From: an uncultured Candidatus Saccharibacteria bacterium
GTDB taxonomy: Bacteria; Patescibacteriota; Minisyncoccia; Phycocordibacterales; UBA2100
Direction: 5' to 3'
Length of the DNA stretch: 64,000 nucleotides
Assembly (NCBI GenBank): GCA_964399865.1
Contig: CAYNRJ010000002.1
Coordinates: 22,151-86,150, forward strand
The notes below the pieces were generated by a model. The model did no database searches, had not been told where the DNA came from, and was given only the letters and a program-made list of their open reading frames with translations. Shown one piece after another: positions 34,809 to 61,467 of the stretch; position 1 is the first letter of the stretch, and each line of letters opens with the position of its first letter. Position numbers and translations under genes: made by a program.

Positions 34809-34826
34809 GGGTGTATCATCCGTCTC

Positions 34827-36193: not shown

Positions 36194-36195
36194 AC

Positions 36196-36945: not shown

Positions 36946-36955
36946 GATTGGCGGA

Positions 36956-37609: not shown

Positions 37610-37612
37610 ACC

Positions 37613-38758: not shown

Positions 38759-38759
38759 T

Positions 38760-39443: not shown

Positions 39444-39450
39444 AGAGTAT

Positions 39451-40128: not shown

Positions 40129-40138
40129 ATTTCTAACT

Positions 40139-40828: not shown

Positions 40829-41463
40829 AGATCACGATACTAGTCGATACTCCGCAGAGTTGGATAGTCCCATACGCGCAAACACTCGAATCAAACCTTC
40901 ATTCGCTGGGGCACGATGCCTCATTGGTGCACGCAGCAAATAAAATAGAGTCAGGCGACATCGCCTTTTTCCTCTCGTGCGAGCGAATTATCCCTGTTTC
41001 CATTTTGAGAAAGAACAAACACAATCTTGTTGTACACGAAAGCGCTCTTCCTAAGGGAAAAGGATGGTCGCCGATGACGTGGCAAGTCCTCGAAGGTAAG
41101 AGGAAGATCCCGGTCACACTCTTTGAGGCAGCAGAGTCCGTTGATAGCGGAGTTATTTACGCACAAAACTCAATAGCGCTTACGGGTAGCGAATTGGTTG
41201 ACGAGCTTCGCGAGAAGCAGGGGAAAGCGACAATTGCCCTCGCCCTTTCGTTTGTTCGCAAGTATCCAGTAATTCGCGGCAAGAAACAAAGCGGGAGGGC
41301 TACGTTTTATCCTCGAAGAAAACCGAAGGACAGTGAGCTTGATCCAAATAAAACAATCGCGGAGCAGTTCGATCTTCTTCGTGTCGTCGATAACGAACGA
41401 TATCCGGCATTTTTCAAATATCGCGGGCACGAGTATGTGCTGAAGATTTCCAAAAGAAAGTAA
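40825..41463 (+). CDS. Formyltransferase-fold protein, second copy
   Basis: VVHESALPKGKGWSPMTW matches the formyltransferase core motif. Confidence 0.55.
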   Translation: MKITILVDTPQSWIVPYAQTLESNLHSLGHDASLVHAANKIESGDIAFFLSCERIIPVSILRKNKHNLVVHESALPKGKGWSPMTWQVLEGKRKIPVTLFEAAESVDSGVIYAQNSIALTGSELVDELREKQGKATIALALSFVRKYPVIRGKKQSGRATFYPRRKPKDSELDPNKTIAEQFDLLRVVDNERYPAFFKYRGHEYVLKISKRK

Positions 41464-41464
41464 T

Positions 41465-42544
41465 ATGAAAACTCCTGCAATCACCATAGGGAAAAGAAAG
41501 GTGGGGCCCGGGCACCCATGTTTTGTGATCGCGGAAGTTTCTGCAAATCACCATCAGAAATACGAGGAAGCTGAGGCAATTATTCGCGCGGCAAAAGAAG
41601 CGGGAGCAGATGCGGTAAAGCTCCAAACATATACGCCTGATACGATGACGATTGATTCAGATAAAAAATGGTTCTTCTTGGGGGGAAAAGACACACCGGA
41701 ATCTTGGAAGAAAACCAATCTCTACAAACTCTACGGCACCGCATACACACCCTGGGAATGGCAGCCGAAATTGAAGAAGTTTGCAGAAAGCCTTGGTCTT
41801 ATATTCTTCTCGACACCCTTTGATGCGACGGCGGTGGATTTTCTAGATAAGATGAAAGTACCTTGTTACAAGATCGCCTCCTACGAAGCGACGGATATTC
41901 CGCTCCTCAAGAAAATCGCTTCAACAAAAAAGCCCGTCATCATGTCAATAGGCTTTGCTGAGCTCTCTGAGGTCAAGGACTCTATGAAAGCGCTTCGCGG
42001 TGCAGGAGCAAAAGAAATCGCAGTCCTCCACTGCGTGACCGCATACTCCGGAGATCCAAAACCCGAGTTTATGAATTTAAATACTATCCAAGATATCGCT
42101 AAGCGTTTCAATGTAGTAAGCGGATTTTCAGATAACAATGCGGGTATCGAGGCGCCTATCGCGGCGGTGTATGCGGGCGCATCAATAGTGGAGAAGCATG
42201 TGACGCTTGATAGAAAGCTTGGCGGACCTGATGCGCGATTTTCTATAGAACCACAGGAACTAGCGGAGATGGTGCGTGGAATTAGGCGTGCTGAAAGCGC
42301 ACTTGGGAAAGTCCAATACGGTCCTGTAAACGAAGACGAGAAGAATTATAAAAATCTGCGCAGATCTCTTTTTGCCGTCGCAGATATACAGAAGGGCGAG
42401 AAATTTACGGCAAAGAACACACGAGTTATCCGCCCGGCATACGGTCTTCCGCCCAAAGAGTACGATAGAGTTATCGGGAAGCGCGCTGCTCGTAGTATAG
42501 AGCGAGGGGAGCCGCTTACCAAGAAAGACATTACACGCTCATGA
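41465..42544 (+). CDS. pseI: Nonulosonic acid synthase (NeuB/PseI/LegI family; PEP-condensing TIM barrel plus C-terminal SAF domain)
   Basis: ...CFVIAEVSANH...KLQTY.. N-terminus, and C-terminal ...GEKFT..N.RVIRP SAF-domain motif. The pseI symbol rests only on adjacency to pseB and pseC. Confidence 0.75.
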   Translation: MKTPAITIGKRKVGPGHPCFVIAEVSANHHQKYEEAEAIIRAAKEAGADAVKLQTYTPDTMTIDSDKKWFFLGGKDTPESWKKTNLYKLYGTAYTPWEWQPKLKKFAESLGLIFFSTPFDATAVDFLDKMKVPCYKIASYEATDIPLLKKIASTKKPVIMSIGFAELSEVKDSMKALRGAGAKEIAVLHCVTAYSGDPKPEFMNLNTIQDIAKRFNVVSGFSDNNAGIEAPIAAVYAGASIVEKHVTLDRKLGGPDARFSIEPQELAEMVRGIRRAESALGKVQYGPVNEDEKNYKNLRRSLFAVADIQKGEKFTAKNTRVIRPAYGLPPKEYDRVIGKRAARSIERGEPLTKKDITRS

Positions 42545-44328
42545 CATTTTCCACTCTCAAACGATTCTTTAAAGCATTCCGGCGATACCGGCTTCATATC
42601 GCTATTTTGATAGTCCTCGGTTTCCTTGGCGGGATTCTCGAGGGCGTTGGCATCAGCGCCATCATTCCATTATTTGCGCTCCTTGCAGGTGAAGGTACAG
42701 GTGAATTAAACGCAATCTCCAAGATTATCGTGGGTGCTTTCGATTATTTTCCGTTCCCTTATTCCGCGGAGTCACTTCTCATCATGGTCGTCGTCTTTTT
42801 CGCGCTACGCGCGGTCGTCATGGTCACGTTTAATTACCTACGCGCACGAGTAGGCGCGAGCTTTATGGTGCGTACCATGAACGAAGTTTTGGAAAAAGTA
42901 TTGCGGGCTGAGTGGGGGTATCTCTTGAAGCAACGGCTTGGCTATGCGGAAACGATATTCCTTCGCGATATTCGTCAGGCGTCCGCGTTGCTTGAATCAG
43001 TAAGTCAGGCAGTTCTGGTGTTCACGAACCTCATCATTTATGTCGTTCTTGCCTTCTATATATCGGCTCCAATTACCCTTATTACAACAGTAGCGGGGGC
43101 CGTACTGCTTCTCTTCCTGCAGCCGGTTCGAACGATGACTCGTAAAATTGCTGATGTTGCCTCTACGGCAGAAAAGGGGATGGCTCATTTCATCAGTGAG
43201 CACGTCCTTGGTGTAAAAACAGTCAAAGCAACAGGGACTGAATATGCGGTGTTTAAAAAGGGAACAGGCTTCTTCGATACGCTTAAACGAGTTCTTATCA
43301 GAAGTTCGTTCGTACAATCTGCTGGTAGTGCGGTCGTGCAGCCGCTCGCTCTCATCTTTATCGCCTCCGTCTTTCTCTATTTCCACAATGTAAACGCGGC
43401 AAACCTCGGCGCGTTCCTAGTCCTGGTCTACCTGATCCAAAAAATATTCGTGTACGTCGAAGCAGGGCAGAGCACGCTCCACGCTGTGTACGAAAAATTG
43501 CCGTATGCGACCGCGCTCCTTTCGTTCCGAGACGATTTGGTTGCGCATCAAGAGAAATCATCTGGCACGGAACCATTCTCGTTCTCCTCTGATTTATCGT
43601 TCAAGAATGTTGGATTTGCATACGAAAGTGGCGCGGCAGTCCTGACAAATGTTGATTTCACTGTGCGAAAGGGCGAAATGGTTGGACTCATTGGGCCCTC
43701 GGGTGCAGGGAAAACGTCTGTTGCGGATCTTATTCTTCGTTTCTTTACAGCTACGAATGGCAGTGTCGAGCTCGATGGCGTTCCCGTCGGACAGTTCAAT
43801 CTGAGTGAATGGCGACACAAGGTGGGTTACGTATCTCAAGATCAATTCCTCCTATCGGATACGGTGAAAAATAATATTCGATTCTATGATGACTCTGTGT
43901 CTGATGAGGCGATCGAGCGAGCGCTAAAAATGGCACACTGCAAAGAATTCATAGATAAACTTCCAGAAGGCATCGATACTCTGGTAGGTGAGCGCGGAGT
44001 GCGCCTCTCAGCTGGTCAGCGTCAGCGCATCATGCTCGCGCGCGTTCTAGCGAGAGAGCCGGCGATGCTCATTCTCGATGAAGCAACGAGCGCACTCGAC
44101 AATGAATCCGAGAAGCATGTGCAGCAGGCGATCGATGACCTTCGAGGAAAGGTCACGATGTTCATAATTGCACATCGATTATCGACCGTGACGCACGTCG
44201 ACAACATTCTTGTCCTCAAGGACGGAAAAATTGCTGAGAGTGGATCTCCAGAGAAACTACTCGCTGATACAAATTCGTACTTCTACAAAATGCATCACAT
44301 AAAAGGTGGCGCGGATCTTCTTACCTAA
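42541..44328 (+). CDS. ABC transporter, fused permease and ATPase (MsbA/exporter type)
   Basis: Six N-terminal TM helices. Walker A GPSGAGKTS, signature LSAGQRQR, Walker B ILDEATSALD, H-loop IAHRLST. Confidence 0.85.
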   Translation: MTFSTLKRFFKAFRRYRLHIAILIVLGFLGGILEGVGISAIIPLFALLAGEGTGELNAISKIIVGAFDYFPFPYSAESLLIMVVVFFALRAVVMVTFNYLRARVGASFMVRTMNEVLEKVLRAEWGYLLKQRLGYAETIFLRDIRQASALLESVSQAVLVFTNLIIYVVLAFYISAPITLITTVAGAVLLLFLQPVRTMTRKIADVASTAEKGMAHFISEHVLGVKTVKATGTEYAVFKKGTGFFDTLKRVLIRSSFVQSAGSAVVQPLALIFIASVFLYFHNVNAANLGAFLVLVYLIQKIFVYVEAGQSTLHAVYEKLPYATALLSFRDDLVAHQEKSSGTEPFSFSSDLSFKNVGFAYESGAAVLTNVDFTVRKGEMVGLIGPSGAGKTSVADLILRFFTATNGSVELDGVPVGQFNLSEWRHKVGYVSQDQFLLSDTVKNNIRFYDDSVSDEAIERALKMAHCKEFIDKLPEGIDTLVGERGVRLSAGQRQRIMLARVLAREPAMLILDEATSALDNESEKHVQQAIDDLRGKVTMFIIAHRLSTVTHVDNILVLKDGKIAESGSPEKLLADTNSYFYKMHHIKGGADLLT

Positions 44329-45615: not shown

Positions 45616-46131
45616 TTAAAGGCTGAGAAATTCTGTAAGTTTCTCAATGCCTTGCTCGATACTGACTTCGTTTGTCTTTATTGTTATCTCGGGATTAATC
45701 GGTTTTTCGTATGGATTTTTATCACTCATGCCGATGAGGTCGTCTTTCTCACCCGCTTTCGCTTTTGCATAGAGTCCTTTTGTATCGCGTGCGATACAGA
45801 CTTCGAGGGGGCAATCGATAAAGACTTCAATGTAGCCTTCCCCGATTATTTGTCTTGATCGTGCTCTATCTTCCAAGAAAGGTGAGATGACGGAAACAAG
45901 TACGAAATCATTCGAGGCAGCTTTTTCTTTCGCATATTCTGCAATGAGTCGGTTGTTCTCGCGAATATCGTCGCGAGAGAATCCGTGTTTGTGTCCGTGC
46001 ATCTTTCGCACTTCGTCGCCATCGAGCAAGTAGGCTGACTTTTCGATTTTCTTCAAGGTAGTGTGGAGAGCGTTTGCAAGCGTTGATTTGCCTGAGCCGC
46101 TTAAACCTGTGAACCACAACACTTTTCCCAT
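45616..46131 (-). CDS. cysC: Adenylyl-sulfate (APS) kinase
   Basis: VLWFTGLSGSGKSTLA P-loop; about 171 aa. Immediately downstream of the sulfurylase fusion gene. Confidence 0.85.
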   Translation of the reverse strand: MGKVLWFTGLSGSGKSTLANALHTTLKKIEKSAYLLDGDEVRKMHGHKHGFSRDDIRENNRLIAEYAKEKAASNDFVLVSVISPFLEDRARSRQIIGEGYIEVFIDCPLEVCIARDTKGLYAKAKAGEKDDLIGMSDKNPYEKPINPEITIKTNEVSIEQGIEKLTEFLSL

Positions 46132-46134
46132 GGA

Positions 46135-48393
46135 TTATTCTACAAACACTTTCTTCCCTTTTTTAATCAAGTCGAGAATTAGCTCTGAAATCTCAGGTCG
46201 CATGAACCACTCCGGAAGCTTTTTGCCCGAAAGGAGAGTCTTTCTCGCTTCAGTTCCGCTGATGTGTAGCTTTTCACCCTCGTTGTGTTTGGAGGTGTCG
46301 TCAGCTTCATGCACGTGCCTACGCTCCTTCTCTGAATAAAAAACGTGATTGAACTTTACCGGTACAATTCCAAGATCTGGGAATTTCTCGAAGATATCGT
46401 GAGATGCGGTCGGGGCGTAGAAATTACCTACGCCAGTGTGATCGCGGCCGATAATAAAATGACTGCATCCAAAATTCTGCCGACAGATCGCAGTAAACAA
46501 TGCCTCGCGCGGACCAGCGTAGCGAGAGAACGTCGCGTATGTACCAAATACGGCACTGTGTTTACGATAAAACTGCTTCATCATAAGCGCGTATGATGCG
46601 ACAATCGTCTCCGCTTCAAAGTCACCTTTTTTCTTCTTTCCAACAATAGGATGAATAAAAAGTCCATCAGCAAAGGATCGGCGTAGGGCCTCGAGTTGGA
46701 TAAACTCGTGTCCCCTGTGTATTGCGTTTCGTGTATGGAAGGCAACTATCTTTGCCCAGCCGCGATCAACGAAGAGTCGGCGAGATTGTCTTGGGGTAAG
46801 TTCGTAGCGTTTTGTTGGAGAATCAAAACGTTTGAGAAGAGTTATTTTTCCAGCAAGAAAGAGTGGCTTCATTGTTAGCGCTTCGGCGACACCGGGGTGA
46901 GCTGGGTCTTTCGTACCGTACATTTTCTGAACGAATTTTTCCCTGTCGTACGTATATTTTTCTTTGAGATGAAGTATGCCGACCGTCTCTCCTTTTTTAT
47001 TCGTAAGAGCCACGTCCTGCTTTAGTTTCATTTTCTTTGCTTCCTCCTCACTGGCATCCAAAACAATCGGCATAGGCCAAATGACGCCGTTTGCGAGCCG
47101 CATGCGAGAAAGCACAGATTCAAGGTCTTTTTTACCAAGGAATCCTTCAAGTGGACTGAACGTGCCGATCGCGATCTGTTCGATATCCATGTGCTGTTCG
47201 TCGGTAATCTGAAGAGTATGCAATCCCTTCTTTGGAGTGTAGGAAGAATCCGCTACCCTATCGACGAGAACGCCGCCATTTGGCTCTACCAACGCTGATT
47301 CACTACTTCCGGAGAGCAGGTAGTCGCCTGTATCAAGCTGTTTTACATACGGAAGACCAACTGGGCGAACTTTCGCAGGGACGAATCTTTCCGCCTGGTC
47401 AATCAGTTTATTGATCGTTGTAATAACTTCGATCGGGTATTTGCCTATAGCGGTTTCCGCTGCGAGCGTGAGTCCATATGCACCATCAAGAATTGTTTGG
47501 ATAACATCGTGTACTTCCGCTCGAGTCGGATTCTTCTTTTGTACCATTGATTCGAGCAGGTTCGTCGCAACGAAGACACCTTTTTTCTTTTTACGCGCTC
47601 TGTCCATGACGATCTTTTGTGTGAAAGGTATGCGCTCGATCGGGACCTCACGGCTCAAGTCTCCGCGGTCTATGAGGAGGAAATCAGACTTATCGATGAT
47701 CTTATCTAGAGATTCGAGTGCTTCGACGCATTCGATCTTGGAAATTATTTTCATGCGATTCTTCGACACCTTACGGACGAGGTCGACTGTTTCCGGGGAA
47801 CGAACAAACGACACAGCGATATGCTCGACCCCTTCCTTAAGAGCGATCTGTATCGCTTCAAGGTCTTTCGGCGAAAGGGCAGGGAGGTCGTATTTCTTCT
47901 TTGAAGCAGAATCGATGACGACACCCTTATTCATTCCCATCTGACCGCCTGTGATCGCTGACGCGACTACATAACCGTTTGTCTTGAGTGGCGAAATATC
48001 CAGCACCCGAAACACCAGCGAGTCGAAATCTACATAGATAAGGTCGCCTTCCTCCAATTGCGTAACGATATTCCCCGGTCGAAGCGACATGCGAGTTTTA
48101 TCTCCCACTATCTCTTCTTTATAAATATTGACGATATCGCCCTCTTCAATCGAGACTTCTCGATTTGCTATTGCGCCATTACGAACCTGAGAGCCTTCAG
48201 TGTCGAGAATGAATGGAACGCCGACCTCGCGTGCCATTTTCATAAAACGTCGCTGGTCTTCTATGCTCGAGTGCGACATATTTACACGCACGAAATCGAC
48301 TCCGCGGTCTTTAAGCATTCGCAGGCTCTCCTCTGTGTTAGTGGAGGGTCCGAGCGTGACGACTATCTTTGTTTTTGTAGAATGTTTCCCCAT
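46135..48393 (-). CDS. sat: Fusion protein: N-terminal pyruvate kinase catalytic domains (about 370 aa, no C-terminal regulatory domain) joined to a full-length C-terminal sulfate adenylyltransferase (ATP sulfurylase)
   Basis: PK motifs KTKIVVTLGP, VNMSHS, KIISKIEC (catalytic Lys context), IDRGDLSREVP, ATNLLESM, AAETAIGKYP. The Sat part has the N-terminal PUA-like domain (...GTFSPLEGFLGKKD...VIWPMPIVLD) and the QTRN/HRAH-type motif FHTRNAIHRGHEF, plus GRDHTGVG. Confidence 0.8.
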   Translation of the reverse strand: MGKHSTKTKIVVTLGPSTNTEESLRMLKDRGVDFVRVNMSHSSIEDQRRFMKMAREVGVPFILDTEGSQVRNGAIANREVSIEEGDIVNIYKEEIVGDKTRMSLRPGNIVTQLEEGDLIYVDFDSLVFRVLDISPLKTNGYVVASAITGGQMGMNKGVVIDSASKKKYDLPALSPKDLEAIQIALKEGVEHIAVSFVRSPETVDLVRKVSKNRMKIISKIECVEALESLDKIIDKSDFLLIDRGDLSREVPIERIPFTQKIVMDRARKKKKGVFVATNLLESMVQKKNPTRAEVHDVIQTILDGAYGLTLAAETAIGKYPIEVITTINKLIDQAERFVPAKVRPVGLPYVKQLDTGDYLLSGSSESALVEPNGGVLVDRVADSSYTPKKGLHTLQITDEQHMDIEQIAIGTFSPLEGFLGKKDLESVLSRMRLANGVIWPMPIVLDASEEEAKKMKLKQDVALTNKKGETVGILHLKEKYTYDREKFVQKMYGTKDPAHPGVAEALTMKPLFLAGKITLLKRFDSPTKRYELTPRQSRRLFVDRGWAKIVAFHTRNAIHRGHEFIQLEALRRSFADGLFIHPIVGKKKKGDFEAETIVASYALMMKQFYRKHSAVFGTYATFSRYAGPREALFTAICRQNFGCSHFIIGRDHTGVGNFYAPTASHDIFEKFPDLGIVPVKFNHVFYSEKERRHVHEADDTSKHNEGEKLHISGTEARKTLLSGKKLPEWFMRPEISELILDLIKKGKKVFVE

Positions 48394-48487: not shown

Positions 48488-49927
48488 GTGTCGCCTCGGC
48501 TTCCTGCGATGGTCTCGTGTGATAGTCTGTACAACTGTATGGATTTCTCCCGTACGGATACTCAAAAATCGAAGAAAGTCGCCCTCTTTGCTCATAATTG
48601 GCACTGGCTCGTAATGAATGAGCGGGTAATGGATGAACTTCGCGAACACAATGTCGATTTCTCTCTTTTTATCTTGCGACATCCGGACAATGCTTACTTT
48701 GACCGCCTCAAGGCGGCGCAGCAAAAATATCCGGCCCTCTCAGGATTTAAGAAGGGTAGTTTTGAAACAGCACTGGTTCGATTTTTCGCACACATTCCAT
48801 TCATAGGAGAGCTCGCGAGTGCGTATCTGGTCTACAGGCACGCGCGCCGCTTTCTTAGACTAAGCGAGGCACGTGCTCTTATCATCACTGATGACCGCGC
48901 ACTATTTTATCCGCTCGCCGCACTACGTGCAGCGGCGTCTCTAAAAATTCCAACAGTCCTTTTCCCCGCAGAAACTCTCATGCTCGTTTCGGGGCTCGAA
49001 CAGGATAAAGCGGCGAGTATGTCAGGGGAAACATTCCTTAGAAAATTCACACGCGACATAGTCAAAAAGCATTATCCGAAGAGCGTACGAGTCGTTAATG
49101 GGCGCGAGGCACATTTTTATTCCCCACGTCGTGTGTTGCCCTTTCTTTTTTGGCCATCATTTCTTCCAACAAACCCCTGGGTGCGAGGATCTAACGAGGC
49201 CCTCTCACTCGTTGCGGTGAATTCAAAGGCGCAGTTCGAAGAGAACGCAATATACGGAATTCTCCCGGAAAGGATGAGCGTTACTGGATTTCCTCCACAC
49301 GATAGTTTTGTCGCCAGCACTAAGGCCGATAAAAATAAAATTCGCACCGCATTCGCGGAGGAGTTTAATGCACCAAACGAGTCGAAGGTATTTCTAGTTG
49401 CTGGGACGCATTTCAGAAGCGTATATGATGCGAGCGAGCTTCCTGCGGTTGAGAGAGAGGTGAAAGAAGTATTCCAGAAACTTTGTGAAAAGATCCCGGA
49501 AGAATATCTTATGGTGGTGAAGCTCCACCCCAATACAGAGGCAAAGCAGTGGATTGATTATTTTGGAAAACAGAAACGAAGAATTGTGTTTGTGCACCGC
49601 GAGTGGGATGCGTATCGACTATTGGCGATTGCGGACTCGGTCTTTATGTTCGCGTCATCTATTGTGATGGCAGGGCTCGCGACGAATGTGCCGATCTGGG
49701 CTTATAAATTACGACTCCCGAGTTTTGAGGCCTTTTTCAAACCGTACCGCTCGATCACTCTTCTAAATGACGTTGCCTCTCTGGATCGCGAGCTCGCAAA
49801 GTTCACCGGAGTGCTTTCGTCAGATATGCGCGAGAAAAGAGAGAAAGACAGAGCAGAGCTCGGCATGTTTGATGGAAAGAGCGCTGCACGTTTTTACGCT
49901 ACGTTGGAAAAAATTCTTACAGCATGA
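48488..49927 (+). CDS. Hypothetical GT-B-like protein; possibly capsule-polysaccharide (KpsC/KpsS) or TagF-type transferase family
   Basis: C-terminal half has hydrophobic-KLHP and ...AGTHF blocks reminiscent of the Capsule_synth and Glyphos_transf families. Weakly similar to the next ORF. The start may be a later internal Met. Confidence 0.35.
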   Translation: MSPRLPAMVSCDSLYNCMDFSRTDTQKSKKVALFAHNWHWLVMNERVMDELREHNVDFSLFILRHPDNAYFDRLKAAQQKYPALSGFKKGSFETALVRFFAHIPFIGELASAYLVYRHARRFLRLSEARALIITDDRALFYPLAALRAAASLKIPTVLFPAETLMLVSGLEQDKAASMSGETFLRKFTRDIVKKHYPKSVRVVNGREAHFYSPRRVLPFLFWPSFLPTNPWVRGSNEALSLVAVNSKAQFEENAIYGILPERMSVTGFPPHDSFVASTKADKNKIRTAFAEEFNAPNESKVFLVAGTHFRSVYDASELPAVEREVKEVFQKLCEKIPEEYLMVVKLHPNTEAKQWIDYFGKQKRRIVFVHREWDAYRLLAIADSVFMFASSIVMAGLATNVPIWAYKLRLPSFEAFFKPYRSITLLNDVASLDRELAKFTGVLSSDMREKREKDRAELGMFDGKSAARFYATLEKILTA

Positions 49928-51294
49928 CCATATTCATTGCTATTTACGATAGTTTGCTTGCGAATAGTATTCTTCGTACGGATGTTGTGCCCACGCTTCT
50001 TGAGAGAAATAAGGATTTACGAGTAGTCGTACTTGCGGATAAAAGTCGCGTCGAAGAATATAAAAAAATATTTAATACGGACCGGGTCGTGGTTGAAGGA
50101 GTCGACGTGAATCCAATGTCGAATTTTGAAAGACGATGGGCGTCTTTCATTTGGCACACTGTTTCAAGCGCGACTCTTACAATTCAATTATACGGAGGCC
50201 CGCTTTCACCGAGGAGGAATTTTTTGAACCGCACTGCAACATACGCGCTTCGATTTATTTTTGGGAATGTCGTTGGGAGAGCGCTTCTACGAACGATCGA
50301 TTTTCATCTGTTTCGCACCGAGCCGTATGCAACATTGTTCGAGACGTATAAACCAACCGCAGTTTTTGCAGCAAACGTCTATGCGCCATTAGATACAGAA
50401 GTGATCCGTGAAGCTAAGCGACGTGCTATTCCTACTATCGGTATGGTGAAGAGTTGGGACAATGTGACCTCGCGCGGTCTTATACGAGCGCTCCCTGATG
50501 AATGCATTTCGCAATCCTATCTTGTGAGAGAGCAATTACATGCATTCGCCGATCTGCCACTTGAAAAAACTACTGTCTCTGGCGTTCCGCAGTATGATAT
50601 TTACTTTAGGCCTGACGATGAAGAGAGGGTTTCATTCTGGAAACGTTTCGGTATCGATGGGACACGCAAAGTTATTCTATTCCTAGAGCCAGGTCTCAAA
50701 TTATCGCCGCATGGTTATGAGGTATGGCAGATGCTCGACACCTATATTGAGAATAAAGGCACGGAAGAGCCGGTAGAAGCATTCATAAGTGTTCATCCTG
50801 CGTATCCGTATAACACGGAGGCTGCGGAAAAATTGAAACACGCAAAGATCGTTCGTTTTGGATACCAATTGAAAGGAGGCGCGCATAAAACATGGGAATT
50901 CTCCAAAGATGCGTACGCTGACCTTATGCGAGTCGTGCGCTACTGTGACTTAGTTATCACGACTGCTTCCACCATGAACATCGAGAGTTCCATATTTGAT
51001 AAGCCGGTCATTAATATTGCATTTGATGGAACAAAGAAACTTCCATATAACGAATCCGTTCGACAATACTACGATTATTCGCACCTTCTTCCGATCGTTC
51101 AATCCGGCGGAGTGAAGGTTGCCTACTCGAAGGAGGAATTGTTTGAGAACATTGACCTTTTACTCAAGCATCCAGAGTGGGGAAGAGAGGGTAGAAGAAA
51201 AATAGTCGAAGAACAATGCGTCTATATCGACGGGAGGTCTGCCGAAAGAATTGCGACCGCTATCCTTGCTTTTATGAGCCGCAGAGCGCAATAA
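49924..51294 (+). CDS. Hypothetical GT-B-like protein, paralogous in architecture to the preceding ORF
   Basis: ISVHPAYP block. ATGA-type overlap with the upstream gene. Located directly upstream of a CMP-sugar synthetase gene. Confidence 0.35.
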   Translation: MTIFIAIYDSLLANSILRTDVVPTLLERNKDLRVVVLADKSRVEEYKKIFNTDRVVVEGVDVNPMSNFERRWASFIWHTVSSATLTIQLYGGPLSPRRNFLNRTATYALRFIFGNVVGRALLRTIDFHLFRTEPYATLFETYKPTAVFAANVYAPLDTEVIREAKRRAIPTIGMVKSWDNVTSRGLIRALPDECISQSYLVREQLHAFADLPLEKTTVSGVPQYDIYFRPDDEERVSFWKRFGIDGTRKVILFLEPGLKLSPHGYEVWQMLDTYIENKGTEEPVEAFISVHPAYPYNTEAAEKLKHAKIVRFGYQLKGGAHKTWEFSKDAYADLMRVVRYCDLVITTASTMNIESSIFDKPVINIAFDGTKKLPYNESVRQYYDYSHLLPIVQSGGVKVAYSKEELFENIDLLLKHPEWGREGRRKIVEEQCVYIDGRSAERIATAILAFMSRRAQ

Positions 51295-51301
51295 TTGATC
51301 T

Positions 51302-52006
51302 ATGCTTGGTATTATTCCTGCGCGCGGAGGCTCAAAACGCCTCCCGGGAAAGAACATTAAAGATTTCTTTGGGAAACCACTTATCGCGTGGACCATTGAG
51401 GCGGCAAAATCTAGCGGCGTATTTGATCGACTTATCGTCCTCACCGATGATCAGGAAATCTCTGATATCGCAAAAAAGTATGGCGCAGAAGTTCCTTTCA
51501 TGGAGCCATCAGAGTTTGCGGGGGACACTGCATATGTAGGCGATGCAATCCGTTATGCATTGCAGCAACTCGAGAGTGAAGGGTATACCTCGCCGGATTT
51601 TATTTTGCTCGAACCGAGTTCAGTCGGGAGAGAGATAAAACACATTCAAGAAGTCGCGAAGCTTCTTGAGGATAGAAGGGATTTTGATTCAATCATCGGC
51701 ATTTCCGAAGTACCTGCGCATCATAGTCACCTCAAACAATTGAACATCGGAGAGAATGGAATAGTTGGACGAGTCGGAGACGGGGCGCCTCTTAAGAATC
51801 TTACGCACCGAAATCAGGATATCGCAAAATCGTATTACATTAATTCCGCAATCTATGGGTTTCGTCGGAAGAATCTTTTCGAGGGCGACAAGAAACTGTG
51901 GGGAGAGAGTACGTATGGTTACGTTATGGATGACTCAAAGCTCGCAGACATCGACACGGCGGCTGATTGGGCTTTGGCAGAATTTAAATTAAAGAACACA
52001 CTATGA
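51302..52006 (+). CDS. neuA: Acylneuraminate cytidylyltransferase (CMP-nonulosonic acid synthetase; NeuA/LegF family)
   Basis: MLGIIPARGGSKRLPGKN N-terminal motif; about 234 aa. Confidence 0.8.
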   Translation: MLGIIPARGGSKRLPGKNIKDFFGKPLIAWTIEAAKSSGVFDRLIVLTDDQEISDIAKKYGAEVPFMEPSEFAGDTAYVGDAIRYALQQLESEGYTSPDFILLEPSSVGREIKHIQEVAKLLEDRRDFDSIIGISEVPAHHSHLKQLNIGENGIVGRVGDGAPLKNLTHRNQDIAKSYYINSAIYGFRRKNLFEGDKKLWGESTYGYVMDDSKLADIDTAADWALAEFKLKNTL

Positions 52007-53103
52007 AAAATCTCCAATTCGGGAAGCTCACTATCGGAGGCACGAGAGTTGTGGTGATCGCGGAAATTGCAGACTCACACAACGGTTCGATGGAGACGGC
52101 TAAGAAACTAGTCGATGCGGCAAAGGCGTCCGGTGCTGATGTAGCGAAATTTCAATTACATTTGGTCGGGAAAAATGAAGTGAATGGAGTAAATGAAATG
52201 ATTCCCGGCTCAATTCAGATGTGGGACGGGCCACTCTATGATATTTTGCAGCGCAATTTGTTTACTGTAGAGATGCACAAAGAGATCAAAGCGTACTGCG
52301 AAAGTGTAGGTATCGAATATCTTTGCACCCCATTTTGTACCGCAGCAGTTGATGTGCTTAATGACATCGGCGTAAATGCGTTCAAAACCGGCTCGGGTGA
52401 ACTTGATAATCTTCCGCAGCATCGTCGACTGGCACAGGTTTCCAAAAAGACGGGGAAACCGGTTATCGTTTCAACGGGCATGAGCATTCTCGAAGAAGTC
52501 GCGGATACAGTGAAGGTCTACAAAGAGGAGGGTGCGATAGAGAATCTTGTTCTTACGAATTGCACCTCGGAATATCCACCGAACGATTACAGTCACGCAA
52601 ATCTTGGGCTCATACAGAAAATGCAAAAAGAATTTGGCGTGTGGGTCGGGCAGAGTGATCACACGATGGACAATTACACAGCGTTCGCTGCTGTCGCACT
52701 CGGTGCGAAGGTGATCGAGAAGCACTTCACACTCGATAGAAAGCAAAAAGGACCGGACCATTTCATCGCACTTGAGCCACAGATGTTTAAAGAGCTCGTG
52801 GATGGAATTCGAAAGATCGAAGTAGCACTGGGAGAAGAAAAAAACATTTCAAAGGAGGAGCAAGTGGTACGTGATTGGGCGTTCCATTCGGTCACGAGTT
52901 TTAAAGACATACAGAAGGGCGAGAAGCTCACGACGGAAAATCTTATTGAGCGCCGCCCGAGAACGATGATGCGAGACGGGAAGAAGGTAGAAGGCATCCC
53001 TTCGAAGTATCTCGATCCAATGTATTCCAAGAAACTATTGGGACGCACGGCTGCTAGAGATATACCAAAGGACACCATGCTCGTGTGGGAGGACGCCGCC
53101 TAG
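52003..53103 (+). CDS. neuB: Nonulosonic acid synthase (NeuB/LegI family), second copy
   Basis: VVIAEIADSHNGS...; C-terminal SAF domain (GEKLTTENL..RRP). Confidence 0.8.
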   Translation: MKNLQFGKLTIGGTRVVVIAEIADSHNGSMETAKKLVDAAKASGADVAKFQLHLVGKNEVNGVNEMIPGSIQMWDGPLYDILQRNLFTVEMHKEIKAYCESVGIEYLCTPFCTAAVDVLNDIGVNAFKTGSGELDNLPQHRRLAQVSKKTGKPVIVSTGMSILEEVADTVKVYKEEGAIENLVLTNCTSEYPPNDYSHANLGLIQKMQKEFGVWVGQSDHTMDNYTAFAAVALGAKVIEKHFTLDRKQKGPDHFIALEPQMFKELVDGIRKIEVALGEEKNISKEEQVVRDWAFHSVTSFKDIQKGEKLTTENLIERRPRTMMRDGKKVEGIPSKYLDPMYSKKLLGRTAARDIPKDTMLVWEDAA

Positions 53104-53160
53104 CGAGTGAGGATCGCTACTATTGAAGGAAGCTGATTTTTGTTGTATTGTGCGTTTACT

Positions 53161-54330
53161 ATGGTGAGACGGGAAATTTCTAAAAAGAAGAAGAAAATAG
53201 CGATAATCGCTGGTTCTCGAGGTGAGTGGGGCTACTACCAGCCGATCATTCGGGAGATAGAAAAGCACCCTCTACTCGACTACGGCATCGTCGTCTCCAA
53301 CATGCACCTACTCGATCGCTTTGGCTCTTCTATAGATGAAATCCGAAAGGAGGGTTTTAAGGTGGACGCTATCATCCACAATACGCTCGATGGATACAGT
53401 CATCTCACAATGGCAAAATCGCTTGCCATTTTTATGCTCCAACTTCCTGAGATATTAAAACAGATGGAGGCCGATTTTGTGCTCGTGGGAGGCGATCGAG
53501 GAGAGCAGCTGATGGCAGCAATCACTGCGGCGCACATGTACATTCCAATTGGGCACGTACAGGCCGGAGAAGTTTCCGGAAACATTGACGGAGTATCTCG
53601 TCACGCGATCACGAAATTCGCTCATCTCCATTTCGCCGCGAACGCTGATGCAGCAAAGCGTATTCTAAAAATGGGAGAAGAATCATTCCGCGTACATACA
53701 ACAGGTGCCCCACAGCTCGATGATTTGACGAGCGGTATTGTGACACCTAGAAAAACGCTTTTCAAAAAGCTTGGGCTAGTGGAAGACAAGCGTCCGCTTA
53801 TGCTTGTGGTCCAACATCCTGTTACAGAAGAATTTGAAAAAGCGGGTGTGCATATGCATGAGACGCTCGAAGCGGTAAAGAAATTTGATGCGCAGGTCGT
53901 CATCATTATGAATAATTCGGACGCGGGCAGCACAGCTGTGTCACGTGTCATTAATAGTGAACGAACTCCAGCAATGAAAGTGTTTCCGAACGTTCCGCGT
54001 GAAGACTTTGCAGGTCTTATGGCCGCAGCGGATGTCCTCGTCGGCAATTCTTCCTCCGGCATTCTTGAGGCCCCTACATTCAAGCTCGCAGCAGTGAATA
54101 TTGGAAGTCGGGAGAAAGGAAGGCTGCAGGGTAAAAATGTCATAAACGCGCCACACAAATCTTCTGAAATTCAGAAAGCGATTAAAAAGGCACTCTCAAA
54201 AAAATTCCAATCATCGCTTCGTACCTGCGTGAATCCATACGGCGATGGAAAATCAGCAAAACGTATCGTCGACATTATCGCGAACACACCGCGCACTGAA
54301 AAGCTTGTGGTAAAGAACATTACTTACTAA
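53161..54330 (+). CDS. neuC: UDP-N-acetylglucosamine 2-epimerase (hydrolysing), NeuC/LegG family
   Basis: KKIAIIAGSRGEWGYYQPI, ...HVQAGEVSG.., and GNSSSGILEAP are non-hydrolysing/hydrolysing 2-epimerase family motifs. Confidence 0.75.
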   Translation: MVRREISKKKKKIAIIAGSRGEWGYYQPIIREIEKHPLLDYGIVVSNMHLLDRFGSSIDEIRKEGFKVDAIIHNTLDGYSHLTMAKSLAIFMLQLPEILKQMEADFVLVGGDRGEQLMAAITAAHMYIPIGHVQAGEVSGNIDGVSRHAITKFAHLHFAANADAAKRILKMGEESFRVHTTGAPQLDDLTSGIVTPRKTLFKKLGLVEDKRPLMLVVQHPVTEEFEKAGVHMHETLEAVKKFDAQVVIIMNNSDAGSTAVSRVINSERTPAMKVFPNVPREDFAGLMAAADVLVGNSSSGILEAPTFKLAAVNIGSREKGRLQGKNVINAPHKSSEIQKAIKKALSKKFQSSLRTCVNPYGDGKSAKRIVDIIANTPRTEKLVVKNITY

Positions 54331-54340
54331 ACTTCTTATT

Positions 54341-54685
54341 ATGAATGCGACTCACTACAACGACTATCTTCTCCAAAAAGATGCGACTATTGAAGACGCT
54401 CTCTCTGCCATCACCGAAAATAAGCGTGGGGCCGTCCTTATCGTTGAATCAGATGACACGCTCGTCGGGGTTGTCGCGGACGGTGATATTCGTCGTGCAC
54501 TAGTTAAAGGAGCGACGACCCTCACGCCAATTGAAAAGATTGTAAATTTGAATGTGGTCTCCGTTAAAAAAGGTCGTGATCAGAAAGAGAAAGGTGAGGA
54601 GATATTCGCGTCTCACGTAGGTATTAATCTCATTCCAGTACTTGAGGCAGGAAATCGCGTGTGTGACGTGCTTGTGAGAGGGTAA
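54341..54685 (+). CDS. CBS-domain pair protein
   Basis: About 114 aa with two CBS-like repeats (GVVADGDIRRA...). Confidence 0.55.
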   Translation: MNATHYNDYLLQKDATIEDALSAITENKRGAVLIVESDDTLVGVVADGDIRRALVKGATTLTPIEKIVNLNVVSVKKGRDQKEKGEEIFASHVGINLIPVLEAGNRVCDVLVRG

Positions 54686-54702
54686 CCTGGGGCGGGCTTC
54701 CT

Positions 54703-56118
54703 ATGAAAAACGACAAGAAGCCACACGTCATCTATCTAATCATCGACGCCGGCGGATTTGGTCATACTAGTCTCGCGGGATATTTTCGCGACACGACACC
54801 TTTCTTAAAGGAATTTTCGAAGGAGTGCGTGCAATATCCACTCGCCTTTGCACAAGGCCCTATTTCAGGTCTCTCTATTGGCAGCTTCACTACTTCTTCG
54901 TACGCGTTTGATCATAAGGATTGTCCGATTGAAGTAAGGCCGTCACGTCCTTCAATAGCCTCTGTTTTACAAAAGAATGGCTATTACACATCGGTCATGA
55001 CCTCTAATCCATACTATGCGAGAAAGCTTGGACATGATCAGGGTGTCGACCACTATAAAATGTTTTTCGAAGAGTCTGATGAGATACGACGGATCGCCGA
55101 AAAGGGACTTCTTATACGCGCTCTCAAGACACTCAATAAAATATCTTTGTATCGCGGGGTCAAAGAATGGATCAAGAAAAATCTTCGATCTCTGTACAAC
55201 GCGGGCAGGATGAGAAAACAAATGATGGCGACGAGGCAGAGCCCGTTCGGCGACGCCGCGCAAGCAAACAAAGAGATCCTCAAACTCCTTAACGACCGCC
55301 CACAAGATAAACCCCTCTTTCTCCTCACTCAGTACATGGATCTTCACGCCCCGCATCTCCCCCCGGACGAGTTTCTAAGAAAATTTGGAGGAACGATATC
55401 AAAACAAGAGCAGTACATTTATTGGCAGAGGAGAAGTATGCGCCCACTCCCTGAATTCTCTCAGAAAGAAGTTGAAGATCTCACACTTCTATATGATGCC
55501 TGCCTTGCGCACATAGATTCACGCATACGAGATGTTGTGAACGAATTAAAGCGAGAGGGGATGTATGATGATTCGCTCATAATTATTTCCGCAGATCATG
55601 GAGAAGCATTTTTTGAGCACGGTGATCTCGGCCATCATGGCCTTCTGTACGAAGAAAATATTCGCGTACCGCTCCTCATCAAATATCCTCACGGAATCGA
55701 GGCAGGAACATCCCGAGACAGCGTCGTGTCTCTTATAGATGTCGCGCCTACTATTCTCGGTGCGGCTGGCGTAAAGCGTCCTGGAACATTTGTAGGAAAA
55801 GATTTGCAGTCCGGATCCGCGTCAGCTTCGAATCAGGTCTCAGATGATCATGCTGTTTCTTTTGTTGCATTCCGTTTTTCTCCAGAGAACTTCACACGAC
55901 TCAACTTTGAGAATTACGCATTATCTGTCCGCACCAAAAACTGGAAGCTCATCGTACAGAGCGGAAAGCCAGACGAGCTCTATAATCTCGAGGAGGATCC
56001 GAAGGAAAAAAGTAACCTGCTAGAAACCAAAGCGCAGAACAAAGGTGCCGCGGAGGCATACCAATCGCTTCGCGAGATGATGCAACCGTATCTAGATAGG
56101 GTGAGTGATAGGTCGTAA
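54703..56118 (+). CDS. Sulfatase-like hydrolase/transferase (alkaline-phosphatase superfamily)
   Basis: N-terminal VIYLIIDAGG; C-terminal IIISADHGEAFFEHGDLGHHG metal-site motif. No Cys/Ser-x-Pro-x-Arg formylglycine motif was seen. Confidence 0.65.
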   Translation: MKNDKKPHVIYLIIDAGGFGHTSLAGYFRDTTPFLKEFSKECVQYPLAFAQGPISGLSIGSFTTSSYAFDHKDCPIEVRPSRPSIASVLQKNGYYTSVMTSNPYYARKLGHDQGVDHYKMFFEESDEIRRIAEKGLLIRALKTLNKISLYRGVKEWIKKNLRSLYNAGRMRKQMMATRQSPFGDAAQANKEILKLLNDRPQDKPLFLLTQYMDLHAPHLPPDEFLRKFGGTISKQEQYIYWQRRSMRPLPEFSQKEVEDLTLLYDACLAHIDSRIRDVVNELKREGMYDDSLIIISADHGEAFFEHGDLGHHGLLYEENIRVPLLIKYPHGIEAGTSRDSVVSLIDVAPTILGAAGVKRPGTFVGKDLQSGSASASNQVSDDHAVSFVAFRFSPENFTRLNFENYALSVRTKNWKLIVQSGKPDELYNLEEDPKEKSNLLETKAQNKGAAEAYQSLREMMQPYLDRVSDRS

Positions 56119-56167
56119 GACGGAAATTGGGACTGGCCGAAATCATGTCACGAGGTACAATCTTGCC

Positions 56168-58420
56168 ATGACAATAGAGAAAGCCCTGCGGTGGGTGGTA
56201 CTAGGAGGCATATTCCTCCTTCCTTTTATTGTGTTTCTGGTTGTTGAGTCACTTTTCTTTCCGTTTATCACGGGGAAGAACTTTGCGTTTCGAATCATTG
56301 TAGAGGTAATAACTGGCGCATGGCTTGCTCTCGCTCTCGTTAACCCTATATATAGACCCCGCCGCTCGTGGCTCCTTGGCGCTTTTGCCCTGTTCGTAAT
56401 AATCATCGCCGCCGCGGATGCCTTTGGCGTTAATCCCTTCAAGAGTTTCTGGAGTAATTTCGAGCGCATGGATGGATGGATCACACTCGCCCATCTCTTT
56501 TTGTACTTTGTAGTAACCTCGGCGATGCTAGGAACGGAAAGACTGTGGCGTACATTCTGGCAGGTGTCCCTTGGAGTGTCTGCGGTCGTCGGTCTTCACG
56601 CAATACTTCAATTCTTCGGAGTAGTCAGCTTGAATGCAGGTTTTTCTTCTGCGACGCGACTTGATGCGACATTCGGCAATCCGATATACCTCGCGTCCTA
56701 CATGCTCTTCAATGTTTTTATGGGCGCGCTTCTTTTCGCGCAAGCATTCAAGGAGAACGCAAACCGTGTTCGCCCATACATGCTTCTCTATGGCGCGGCT
56801 ATTGTTTTCGACAGCCTCATTTTATTTATGACAGGGACACGAGGTACGATGCTCGGACTTATTGGTGGCACAATTCTTGCCGCACTACTTCTTATTCTCT
56901 TCGGGCGAAACGCAGGAAAGATGCGAAAGATAGCGGCGGGAGTGATTGTGATTATCATGGTCCTTGCGAGCGCAGTGTTTCTCGTGCGAGATCAAGCATG
57001 GGTAGATAAGACACCAATTCTCGGGCGACTCGCGAGCATTTCGCTTTCCGCTGGAACAGTACAAGCACGCTTCATGAATTGGGGAATGGCATGGGAAGGA
57101 TTTAAAGAGCGCCCAATCCTGGGATGGGGTCAGGAGAATTACGCGATTGTCTTTAGTAAGTACTACAACCCGCAAATGTATGCGCAGGAGCAGTGGTTCG
57201 ATCGTGTGCACAACGTGATATTTGACTGGCTCATTGCAGGCGGAATCCTAGGTCTCCTAGGGTACTTGTCGATCCTCGTATTTACACTCCTTATGATCTG
57301 GAAACGAAAGGCTGTGCAAGCAGTGAACGCTCTTCAGGGACAAGAGGGAATAAGTGGTTCGTTCACGGTTGCCGAGAAGAGTATTCTTACAGGACTTCTC
57401 GCAGCGTACTTCTTCCACAACCTTTTCGTGTTCGACAACATCATGAGCTACATGCTCTTTGCCACCGTGCTCGCATATATTGCATTTAGAGATGGCATAT
57501 ACACGAATGCCACGAGAGTCTTTTCCACTCTTTCACTATCACCCCGAGTACTCCCAATTATTGCGATTCTAGCTATAGGGGTCGTGTGGGGAGCCGTGTG
57601 GGCCCTGAACGCTCGTCCGGTCGCAGCAAATAGAGCAGTACTTCAGGGACTACAGCCACAGTCGGGCGGCCTTTCAGTGAATCTTGAGTATTTCGATAAG
57701 GCTCTTGCGTATCACACGATCGGCACTCAAGAAATGCGCGAGCAGCTCATGCAGGCAACAGTACAGCTTGCTGGGATCCAGGAGGTACCGCTCGATATGA
57801 AAGAGCGTTTCTTAGACAGGGCAGGGAAAGAGTTAGCGCTTCAATCTGAGGAATCACCACTCGACCCACGTTTCCCACTTTTCCACGGCCTCCTTCTCAA
57901 TGCATATGGTGCGTACGATTCAGCTGCACCAATACTAAGGCGCGCCCACGAACTCTCGCCAACAAAGCAAACCATCCTCTTTGAACTTGCCGCGAATGCA
58001 TTTGCACGTGGTGACAATGCATCTATGCTCGCGTACTTTAAGCAAGCATTCGATCTCGCTCCCGAATTTGTCGATGCCCGTCTCATGTATGCAGCAGCAG
58101 CAATACGAACAGGTGACGATGCGCTCGCTGATTCACTTCTCGCACCAATTCTCTCGAGCGGTAGAGTTGCAGATGCGCGCATCGCAGCAGCGTATGTCGC
58201 TCGAGGGCGATACGACAAGATAGTAAATGTATGGGAGGCTCACCTGCAATCGAATCCCGGTGATGTGCAGGCGTATTTCACTCTCGCTGCAGCGTATTAC
58301 ACAGCGGGAGATAAAGAGGCTGCGATTCGCGTGCTCCAAAGAGTCGCAGTCGTTGATCCGCAAAGTAAAACTCAAGCTGAACAATTGATACGAGATATTC
58401 GTAACGGCACTGTGCAATAA
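56168..58420 (+). CDS. O-antigen ligase / Wzy_C-family polytopic protein with a C-terminal TPR-repeat domain
   Basis: At least 10 TM helices in the N-terminal 430 aa or so. The C-terminal 300 aa or so has alternating A/L/Y-rich TPR-like helices. Start placed at an internal Met (MTIEKAL). Confidence 0.65.
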   Translation: MTIEKALRWVVLGGIFLLPFIVFLVVESLFFPFITGKNFAFRIIVEVITGAWLALALVNPIYRPRRSWLLGAFALFVIIIAAADAFGVNPFKSFWSNFERMDGWITLAHLFLYFVVTSAMLGTERLWRTFWQVSLGVSAVVGLHAILQFFGVVSLNAGFSSATRLDATFGNPIYLASYMLFNVFMGALLFAQAFKENANRVRPYMLLYGAAIVFDSLILFMTGTRGTMLGLIGGTILAALLLILFGRNAGKMRKIAAGVIVIIMVLASAVFLVRDQAWVDKTPILGRLASISLSAGTVQARFMNWGMAWEGFKERPILGWGQENYAIVFSKYYNPQMYAQEQWFDRVHNVIFDWLIAGGILGLLGYLSILVFTLLMIWKRKAVQAVNALQGQEGISGSFTVAEKSILTGLLAAYFFHNLFVFDNIMSYMLFATVLAYIAFRDGIYTNATRVFSTLSLSPRVLPIIAILAIGVVWGAVWALNARPVAANRAVLQGLQPQSGGLSVNLEYFDKALAYHTIGTQEMREQLMQATVQLAGIQEVPLDMKERFLDRAGKELALQSEESPLDPRFPLFHGLLLNAYGAYDSAAPILRRAHELSPTKQTILFELAANAFARGDNASMLAYFKQAFDLAPEFVDARLMYAAAAIRTGDDALADSLLAPILSSGRVADARIAAAYVARGRYDKIVNVWEAHLQSNPGDVQAYFTLAAAYYTAGDKEAAIRVLQRVAVVDPQSKTQAEQLIRDIRNGTVQ

Positions 58421-58855: not shown

Positions 58856-58891
58856 AAAAAACCGTCGGCCCAGTGCCGACGGTTTTGTTTT
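58856..58891 (+). terminator. Rho-independent terminator (8-bp GC-rich stem CCGTCGGC/GCCGACGG extendable through a 4-bp AAAA/TTTT tail to a 12-bp palindrome, 5-nt loop, TTTTGTTTT tail)
   Basis: AAAACCGTCGGC-CCAGT-GCCGACGGTTTTGTTTT. An A-run upstream and a T-run downstream, so it could act bidirectionally. Confidence 0.55.
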
Positions 58892-61415: not shown

Positions 61416-61467
61416 ACCCTCTTCTGTGGGCGTGCCGGGGACTTTTTTTAATGATACAGTGGGGCGC

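Follow-up and report, generated by a model that had tools for sequence, protein, structure and literature searches.

Two nonulosonic acid modules and two TagF-like candidate CMP-nonulosonate transferases in a surface-glycan locus of an uncultured Candidatus Saccharibacteria bacterium

We analyzed a stretch of 64,000 nucleotides (hereafter, the window) of contig CAYNRJ010000002.1 from an uncultured Candidatus Saccharibacteria bacterium (GenBank assembly GCA_964399865.1), in which positions 48488 to 54685 encode a nonulosonic acid module (module 2) preceded by two glycosyltransferase-like proteins, here named GT-1 and GT-2 (Table 1). The open reading frames lie where the initial annotation had placed them, and its description of a NeuC/NeuB/NeuA-like set with a CBS protein agrees with the family scores (TIGR03568, 382.7 bits; PF03102, 237 bits; PF02348, 94.7 bits; PF00571, 31.7 bits), except that the actual gene order is NeuA-NeuB-NeuC-CBS. 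The region is one tight, codirectional operon, to which a sulfatase-family gene and a Wzy_C/TPR gene farther downstream also belong, and its eight plus-strand genes (48488 to 58420) either overlap by 4 to 14 nt or lie no more than 57 nt apart. For GT-1, gene callers set the start at 48509 (472 aa) and homologues align from about 48539; one of these two positions is probably the true start. The operon is the distal half of a surface-glycan locus of approximately 54 kb, spanning about 4474 to 58420, in which a first module, of the pseudaminic acid (Pse) type, lies approximately 9.5 kb upstream (PseB at 32624 to PseI at 42544), in line with the 10 kb estimated initially. We propose that the locus makes two CMP-activated nonulosonic acids, which would be transferred to a glycan by GT-1 and GT-2, a reading to which we give slightly better than even chances.

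As seen in profile searches, both proteins exceed the cut-off of the TagF-like family PF04464 (22.1 bits), GT-1 with 34 bits and GT-2 with 43.4 bits. Of the resemblance to KpsC, KpsS, and TagF that had been suggested, the TagF part therefore holds, whereas the KpsC/KpsS part is marginal: PF05159 matches GT-1 right at its cut-off of 20 (20.1 bits) and does not match GT-2, and BLASTP similarity to Escherichia coli KpsS is weak (E values of 0.012 and 0.022). The two proteins had also been called paralogs, which was rejected at the sequence level (BLASTP E value of 0.15). What they share is a remote homology of their C-terminal regions, detected by comparing the two families with hhalign (205 C-terminal columns, 16% identity, probability of 97.1%, E value of 6e-11), which pairs GFPPHD with GVPQYD and KLHPN with RxHPxY. 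The hydrophobic-xHP blocks noted previously are real in both proteins (Table 1), and among the wider relatives of GT-2 (n = 29), where the motif is mostly R-x-H-P, the histidine is found in 22 and the proline in 25. A (K/R)xHP motif binds cytosine and phosphate in CMP-dependent sialyltransferases and 3-deoxy-D-manno-oct-2-ulosonic acid (Kdo) transferases, and in one Kdo transferase a serine replaces the lysine or arginine (PMC12887879), as is the case in GT-2. Since similar H-P pairs are also present in some 2-epimerases, such as CapG (read by eye), the motif supports nucleotide binding and is no proof of a CMP donor.

Structure prediction yielded confident AlphaFold models (pLDDT of 83.6 for GT-1 and 91.0 for GT-2), and a fold search placed both, as modeled, among the GT-B folds, near TarL, TagF, UDP-GlcNAc 2-epimerases, and CMP-bound Bcs3, rather than in an unrelated fold. 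In structure comparison, the two models gave values of 23 to 24 with UDP-GlcNAc 2-epimerases, 21.1 and 22.7 with TarL, 19.4 and 20.2 with TagF, 16.2 and 18.9 with CMP-bound Bcs3, and 15.7 and 17.5 with the polysialyltransferase SiaD. The top 50 Foldseek matches of the GT-1 model were all 2-epimerases. At the level of sequence profiles, a search of PDB sequences with GT-1 returned nothing significant, and the same search with GT-2 recovered TarL (E value of 0.0016), with the HP motifs of both proteins aligned (KMHP in TarL).

The strongest evidence that GT-1 and GT-2 are CMP-nonulosonate transferases, as was initially suspected, is their conserved neighborhood: across many unrelated metagenome-assembled genomes (MAGs), genes for CMP-sugar synthetases and NeuB adjoin relatives of both. 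A NeuA-like or NeuB-family gene was found within 10 kb in 15 of the 19 genome loci that carry GT-2 relatives (22 to 47% identity), and, of the four loci without one, two are contigs about 3 to 4 kb long. These loci come mostly from Patescibacteria MAGs and also from Gammaproteobacteria, TA06, Anaerolineae, and Desulfosudaceae. Using L numbers for the related loci, a CTP_transf_3 gene lies directly 3' of GT-2 in the window, L004, L007, and L026 and, in L003 and L031, is separated from it by one or two genes. The GT-1 family is small, with 6 word-index matches and 21 cluster representatives (E < 1e-30) among 1.84 billion. Its members sit in nonulosonate clusters at seven of eight loci (the window, L026/L029, L027, L007, L031, L032, and L034), the eighth, L033, being an uninformative 5-kb contig. 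One GT-1 relative is from Kaiserbacteria, and a scan of metagenome contigs with GT-1 gave a single match, a duplicate of L026. The GT-1 relative of L034 sits in a cluster (L034:449-13014) with three NeuB genes and an Epimerase_2 of its own, and it overlaps a CTP_transf_3 gene at the stop codon of the latter.

The distribution of the two families tentatively suggests the Pse derivative as the sugar handled by GT-1 and the module-2 sugar as that handled by GT-2. GT-1 and the Pse module occur together in the window, L026, L007, and L032, whereas L003 and L004 have neither. Moreover, the identity levels match in L026, a Kaiserbacteria MAG with the same Pse module, since GT-1 is 47% and the Pse enzymes are 54 to 80% identical to those of the window, whereas GT-2 is 32% and module 2 is 30 to 36% identical.

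Table 1. Features of the operon and of the surrounding surface-glycan locus (positions in the window)
Feature	Position	Strand	Description
GT-1	48488..49927	+	479 aa; divergent TagF-like GT-B protein, candidate CMP-nonulosonate transferase
GT-1 His340-Pro341 of K-L-H-P motif (VVKLHPN)	49526..49531	+	K338, L339, H340, and P341 invariant in the 6-sequence family alignment
GT-2	49924..51294	+	456 aa; TagF-like GT-B protein, candidate transferase for the module-2 sugar; 4-nt overlap with the GT-1 stop
GT-2 His291-Pro292 of S-V-H-P motif (FISVHPAYP)	50794..50799	+	H291 and P292 invariant in 13 close relatives
NeuA2	51302..52006	+	234 aa; CMP-nonulosonate synthetase (cytidylyltransferase); PF02348
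NeuB2	52003..53103	+	366 aa; nonulosonate synthase, own NeuB clade; PF03102
NeuC	53140..54330 (gene callers: start 53161)	+	hydrolysing UDP-HexNAc 2-epimerase; TIGR03568
CBS protein	54341..54685	+	114 aa; stand-alone CBS pair; PF00571
Sulfatase-family protein	54703..56118	+	same operon; PF00884 (123 bits) and SGSH_C
Wzy_C and TPR protein	56105..58420	+	last gene of the operon; O-antigen ligase/O-oligosaccharyltransferase type; PF04932 (74.3 bits) and TPR repeats
Module 1 (pseudaminic acid derivative pathway)	32624..42544	+	PseB, PseC, CT1, HisH, WbuZ, methylase, WbuX, GT2, formyltransferase parts, PIG-L, PseI
ABC transporter, MsbA/PglK type	42541..44328	+	candidate flippase for a lipid-linked glycan; NCBIfam matches HepA, MsbA, PglK
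Sulfate activation pair	45616..48393	-	divergent from GT-1; PF01583, PF00224, PF14306, PF01747

That the locus holds two distinct synthases is supported by comparison of its two NeuB copies. A recent duplication was rejected, because identity between the copies is 33%, their clades differ, and copy 1 (41465 to 42544) alone passes the PseI model TIGR03586 (424.5 bits; cut-off of 340.25). The best PDB match of copy 1 is PseI (8h2c, 253 bits), whereas that of NeuB2 is Neisseria meningitidis NeuB (195.7 bits), followed by PseI (149.7 bits) and Bacillus subtilis SpsE (142.8 bits). The references of a neighbor-joining tree included E. coli K1 NeuB, a Klebsiella pneumoniae plasmid PseI, and SpsE, without Campylobacter or Legionella LegI; copy 1 grouped with the PseI references (bootstrap of 100), and NeuB2 formed, together with uncultured, mostly Patescibacteria sequences, a clade of its own (bootstrap of 100) that excluded E. 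coli NeuB, SpsE, and PseI.

Next, we considered what module 2 might make. NeuC passes the NeuC/NnaA equivalog model (cut-off of 235.9), but its sequence cannot separate a sialic acid route from a legionaminic acid (Leg, LegG-type) route, because its best PDB scores, with the human GNE epimerase domain (188.8 bits) and the Acinetobacter baumannii N,N'-diacetylbacillosamine (diNAcBac) 2-epimerase (177.5 bits), are too close. NeuB2 is a clear member of the NeuB family, above the PF03102 gathering cut-off, and fails both equivalog models (TIGR03569 for NeuB, 294.3 bits against 399.65; TIGR03586 for PseI, 240.9 bits against 340.25). Its placement in a Neu or Leg clade was not achieved with this reference set, given that it is 29 to 37% identical to every reference (E. 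coli K1 NeuB, K. pneumoniae PseI, PDB 8h2c, B. subtilis SpsE, and plasmid-borne genes), with 30% identity to E. coli K1 NeuB (152 bits) and 36% to the K. pneumoniae plasmid PseI (179 bits). Its closest named relatives (68 to 81% identity) belong to Candidatus Paceibacterota, Kaiserbacteria, and the Patescibacteria group. Together with the Kaiserbacteria relative of GT-1, the Pse module of L026, and the prevalence of Patescibacteria MAGs among the GT-2 loci, they indicate that this metagenome contig probably derives from a member of the Patescibacteria, of a Paceibacteria-like kind. NeuA2 is below the cut-off of the PseF model (TIGR03584, 159.9 bits against 205.7) and is 36% identical to K. pneumoniae PseF and 32% to E. 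coli K1 NeuA.

Pathway logic is more informative. L003 and L004 carry orthologues of GT-2, NeuA2, NeuC, the CBS protein, and NeuB2 (47 to 85% identity) with no PseB or PseC within 10 kb, which suggests that module 2 is self-sufficient and starts from a common precursor. Leg-type routes require a dehydratase and an aminotransferase of their own, and PseC is the sole DegT aminotransferase across the 54-kb locus, which argues against a legionaminic-type route. The product of module 2 is therefore most likely of the N-acetylneuraminic acid (Neu5Ac) type, on this pathway argument and not on sequence similarity. The module is not uniform among relatives. L026 (12686-17815) and L031 (13715-20675) have a divergent version with two extra SDR enzymes, L031 also with a PAPS_reduct-family gene, so the product varies between lineages. 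In L004, two NeuB/NeuC/NeuA triplets and a methyltransferase lie at 13226-20013.

The last member of module 2, the CBS protein, matches the CBS pair of the C-terminal region of KpsF. Its gene is directly 3' of the NeuC orthologue in L003, L004, L007, and L032 (NeuC identity of 58 to 74%) and is absent where NeuC is more divergent. It is thus a conserved partner of the type of NeuC seen here, and possibly, as a guess, a nucleotide- or CMP-sugar-sensing regulator of that enzyme.

In module 1, PseB (425 bits), PseC (481.5 bits), and PseI all exceed their NCBIfam cut-offs. PseG and PseH were not found in the module by NCBIfam, and tblastn with the K. pneumoniae PseG-PseH fusion gave nothing in the window, L007, or L026. 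In their place, the window encodes a 227-aa GT2 protein, a Formyl_trans_C_2 protein, a PIG-L deacetylase, and a Formyl_trans_N protein; L026 (Pse module at 1-8140) has the same set, and L032 (1221-9938, minus strand) instead has a GNAT protein, a HAD hydrolase, and a 180-aa protein. The cytidylyltransferase of the module, CT1 (34827-35585, plus strand, 252 aa, PF02348), keeps its place after PseC in L007, L026, and L032; it scores 38 bits with K. pneumoniae PseF and does not match the PseF model at an E value of 1e-5 or below. The WbuX-type amidotransferase (37613-38758, plus strand) is recognized by NCBIfam only and has no Pfam match.

Taken together, the genes would fit the following scheme. 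Module 1 would lead to a modified pseudaminic acid. In module 2, NeuC would hydrolyze and 2-epimerize a UDP-HexNAc, most simply converting UDP-GlcNAc to ManNAc, NeuB2 would condense the product with phosphoenolpyruvate (PEP), and NeuA2 would activate the resulting acid with CTP. GT-1 and GT-2 would then bind a cytidine-nucleotide donor through the xHP motif and pass the CMP-activated acids on to the nascent glycan, where most likely GT-2 would handle the module-2 sugar and GT-1 the pseudaminic acid derivative. The ABC transporter may flip the glycan, after which the Wzy_C/TPR protein may ligate or polymerize it.

Of its elements, the gene content, families, folds, motifs, and conserved neighborhoods are direct observations, whereas the donors and acceptors, the nature of the second sugar, the sugar assigned to each transferase, and the role of the CBS protein are inferred. 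Several observations weigh against this scheme. The candidate transferases score far below the cut-off of NF046086, the model of the Tannerella BFO_1060 transferase family (C-terminal matches of 28 bits for GT-1 and 38.3 bits for GT-2, against 200), and are thus not members, and none of the GT38, GT42, GT52, and GT80 sialyltransferase Pfam families matched either of them at an E value of 0.01 or below. In hhalign, the GT-2 family pairs with the NeuC family (probability of 96.6%) just as readily as with GT-1. NeuB2 resembles E. coli K1 NeuB no more closely than it does a PseI and falls below the NeuB equivalog cut-off, which is why the Neu5Ac assignment is drawn from pathway logic. In addition, since the Pse module has no PseG or PseH, some protein of the locus must perform the hydrolysis that removes UDP. 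Finally, the pairing of GT-1 with pseudaminic acid fails in L031, which has GT-1 and GT-2 and no Pse module within 10 kb, and L032 has both synthases with only GT-1 and one cytidylyltransferase in view.

Some of these observations would be explained if GT-1, GT-2, or both were nucleotide-sugar processing enzymes, GT-1 perhaps being the missing PseG-type UDP-sugar hydrolase. The presence of GT-1 with PseG-less Pse modules in the window, L026, L007, and L032 is consistent with such a role, as are the resemblance of the GT-2 and NeuC families and the top structural matches of both models, which are UDP-GlcNAc 2-epimerases, hydrolysing ones included. We nevertheless consider it unlikely. Both proteins pass PF04464, whereas the UDP-GlcNAc 2-epimerase family PF02350 (cut-off of 30.6) does not match GT-1 and gives GT-2 only 23.3 bits. 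The profile matches of GT-1 are all to cytidine-nucleotide transferase families, and its hhalign probability with the NeuC family is 0.8%. Of the invariant residues of the NeuC family, D143 alone corresponds clearly to an invariant residue of the GT-2 family (D179), and the GDR and GGE blocks are not kept (alignment read by eye). The position of GT-1 also argues against such a role, as it lies outside the contiguous Pse block, is represented in L034 by a relative that follows a cytidylyltransferase in a cluster already equipped with an Epimerase_2, and occurs in L031 with no Pse module in view. Moreover, without GT-1 and GT-2, no plausible enzyme would be left in the locus to transfer two CMP-activated acids.

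The lack of PseG could also mean that the two modules are parts of a single split pathway, the other option offered by the initial annotation, in which NeuC would supply the missing UDP-sugar hydrolysis and NeuA2 would be the real PseF, giving one nonulosonic acid or two variants from one precursor. NeuA2 is indeed much nearer to a PseF (132 bits) than CT1 is, a NeuC-like gene is near every PseG-less Pse module seen (the window, L007, L026, and L032), and L032 shows NeuB2, NeuC, and the CBS gene without a second cytidylyltransferase in view. This arrangement seems improbable to us, however, as L003 and L004 carry module 2 and GT-2 without Pse genes nearby, and as each module has a synthase and a CTP_transf_3 gene of its own, CT1 keeping its position among relatives. 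Hydrolysis of the NeuC/LegG type is accompanied by inversion at C2 and would not yield the precursor of pseudaminic acid. Two different sugars are thus favored over split modules. Very improbable, in our estimate, is that GT-1 and GT-2 are polyol-phosphate transferases of the teichoic acid type, using CDP-glycerol or CDP-ribitol and unrelated to their nonulosonate neighbors, even though PF04464 is the best Pfam match of both proteins, TarL and TagF rank high in the structure comparison, the GT-2 profile finds TarL, and GT-2 has weak NCBIfam matches to TarF, TarL, and TarB. The teichoic acid scores of NCBIfam are tens of times below their cut-offs, and the adjacency to NeuA and NeuB genes is conserved across phyla. 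Furthermore, no TagD-type (PF01467) or TarI/TarJ-type genes were found in the window or in L003, L004, L026, L031, L032, and L034, whose cytidylyltransferases are only CTP_transf_3 proteins of the NeuA/PseF/KdsB type.

The sulfate genes of the locus lie immediately upstream of GT-1. A 752-aa fusion (46135-48393, minus strand) joins a pyruvate-kinase barrel, without the C-terminal domain of pyruvate kinase, to PUA_2 and ATP sulfurylase domains, and is paired with an adenosine 5'-phosphosulfate (APS) kinase (45616-46131, minus strand). The pair is found upstream of, and always divergent from, GT-1 homologues (fusion at L027:3-1946, minus strand, 74% identity, and at L031:6077-8335, minus strand, 69% identity), and the fusion may couple PEP-driven regeneration of ATP to sulfate activation. 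No paper describing a pyruvate kinase/ATP sulfurylase fusion turned up in a full-text literature search. The window has the genes for synthesis of 3'-phosphoadenosine 5'-phosphosulfate (PAPS) and no recognized sulfotransferase, whereas L031 carries a Gal-3-O-sulfotransferase-family gene (8428-9282) beside the same fusion, without a homologue in the window. The sulfatase-family protein lacks the C/S-x-P-x-R formylglycine motif and, by eye, a signal peptide; its gene is absent from L003, L004, and L026.

As for the rest of the locus, a CPA2 antiporter and the MsbA/PglK-like ABC transporter, which keeps its position after PseI in L026, lie between the Pse module and the sulfate activation pair, and 4474-32589 holds glycosyltransferases, methyltransferases, deacetylases, GT-C proteins, and an MBOAT protein. 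Three ORFs of 285 to 336 aa have no Pfam match (17020-17877, plus strand; 17948-18958, minus strand; 27872-28882, plus strand). To the left of the locus (16-4461, plus strand) are a DUF4015 putative glycosyl hydrolase, a TrwB/T4SS-DNA_transf-like coupling protein, and a protein with Lamin-tail and PKD domains. To its right, a terminator-like hairpin with a 12-bp stem and a T-run (58858-58886) stands just 5' of SecA and GatB (58926-62922, plus strand); a promoter scan found sigma-70-like sites no more frequently than in shuffled sequence. The Wzy_C/TPR gene is in the same place before SecA and GatB in L003 (15743-21380), so that this right-hand edge is kept in both, and it follows the last NeuB gene in L026. 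Since the glycan genes to the left of the conserved edge differ among relatives, the locus behaves like a hypervariable island.

Loci with two nonulosonate pathways and TagB-like Pse or Leg transferases are already known, and the closest case is Tannerella forsythia. Its transferases resemble GT-1 and GT-2 in being GT-B/TagB-like proteins with an HP motif that are encoded near nonulosonate biosynthesis genes (NF046086; PMC5420450), and when Tanf_01245/TFUB4_00887/BFO_1060 is deleted, the S-layer O-glycan loses its terminal Pse or Leg derivative (PMC5420450). In contrast, GT-1 and GT-2 are of about 450 to 470 aa, come from another phylum, and have N-terminal domains without detectable similarity to those enzymes. 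They share the xHP motif in a C-terminal Rossmann domain with the KpsC/KpsS beta-Kdo transferases (PF05159, GT107) and other CMP-ulosonate transferases, and they differ from TagF, TarL, and TarF (PF04464; PDB 3l7i and 8va1) in lying beside CMP-nonulosonate genes, with no genes for the synthesis of CDP-glycerol or CDP-ribitol. Module 2 encodes together the same three enzyme families as NeuC-NeuB-NeuA of E. coli K1 and N. meningitidis, although its NeuC is only 28% identical to the E. coli K1 enzyme and NeuB2 is in its own clade. NeuA2, at 234 aa, is without a C-terminal esterase domain; the NeuA product in L030 is 418 aa long. The module also differs from these pathways in its CBS partner, and it is accompanied by no NeuS/NeuE/NeuD or KpsC/KpsS/KpsM/KpsT system. 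What sets the present locus apart is the combination of transferase candidates outside both the curated Tannerella family and the sialyltransferase Pfam families, a NeuB2 clade of its own, the CBS partner, a Pse module without PseG, and a probable Patescibacteria host.

To our knowledge, few bacterial transferases for sialic acid-like sugars are known, and they are hard to recognize by sequence. Two additional TagF-like families, found with nonulosonate genes throughout many uncultured lineages, would broaden the pattern by which such enzymes are sought and would supply candidates for glyco-engineering. Full-text searches of the literature found no paper linking nonulosonic or pseudaminic acids to Patescibacteria, and the locus suggests that these small-genome bacteria devote over 50 kb to a surface glycan with two such sugars and probably sulfate, which bears on their attachment to host cells. 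A bolder version of the proposal, which we hold to be conceivable though doubtful, is that the NeuB2 clade makes an acid other than Neu5Ac, Leg, or Pse, or a sulfated derivative, that the CBS protein controls its synthesis, and that GT-1 and GT-2 each represent a new CMP-nonulosonate transferase family. If so, these ultra-small episymbionts would be coated with a doubly sialic acid-like, sulfated glycan, the sulfate being supplied through the pyruvate-kinase/ATP-sulfurylase fusion.

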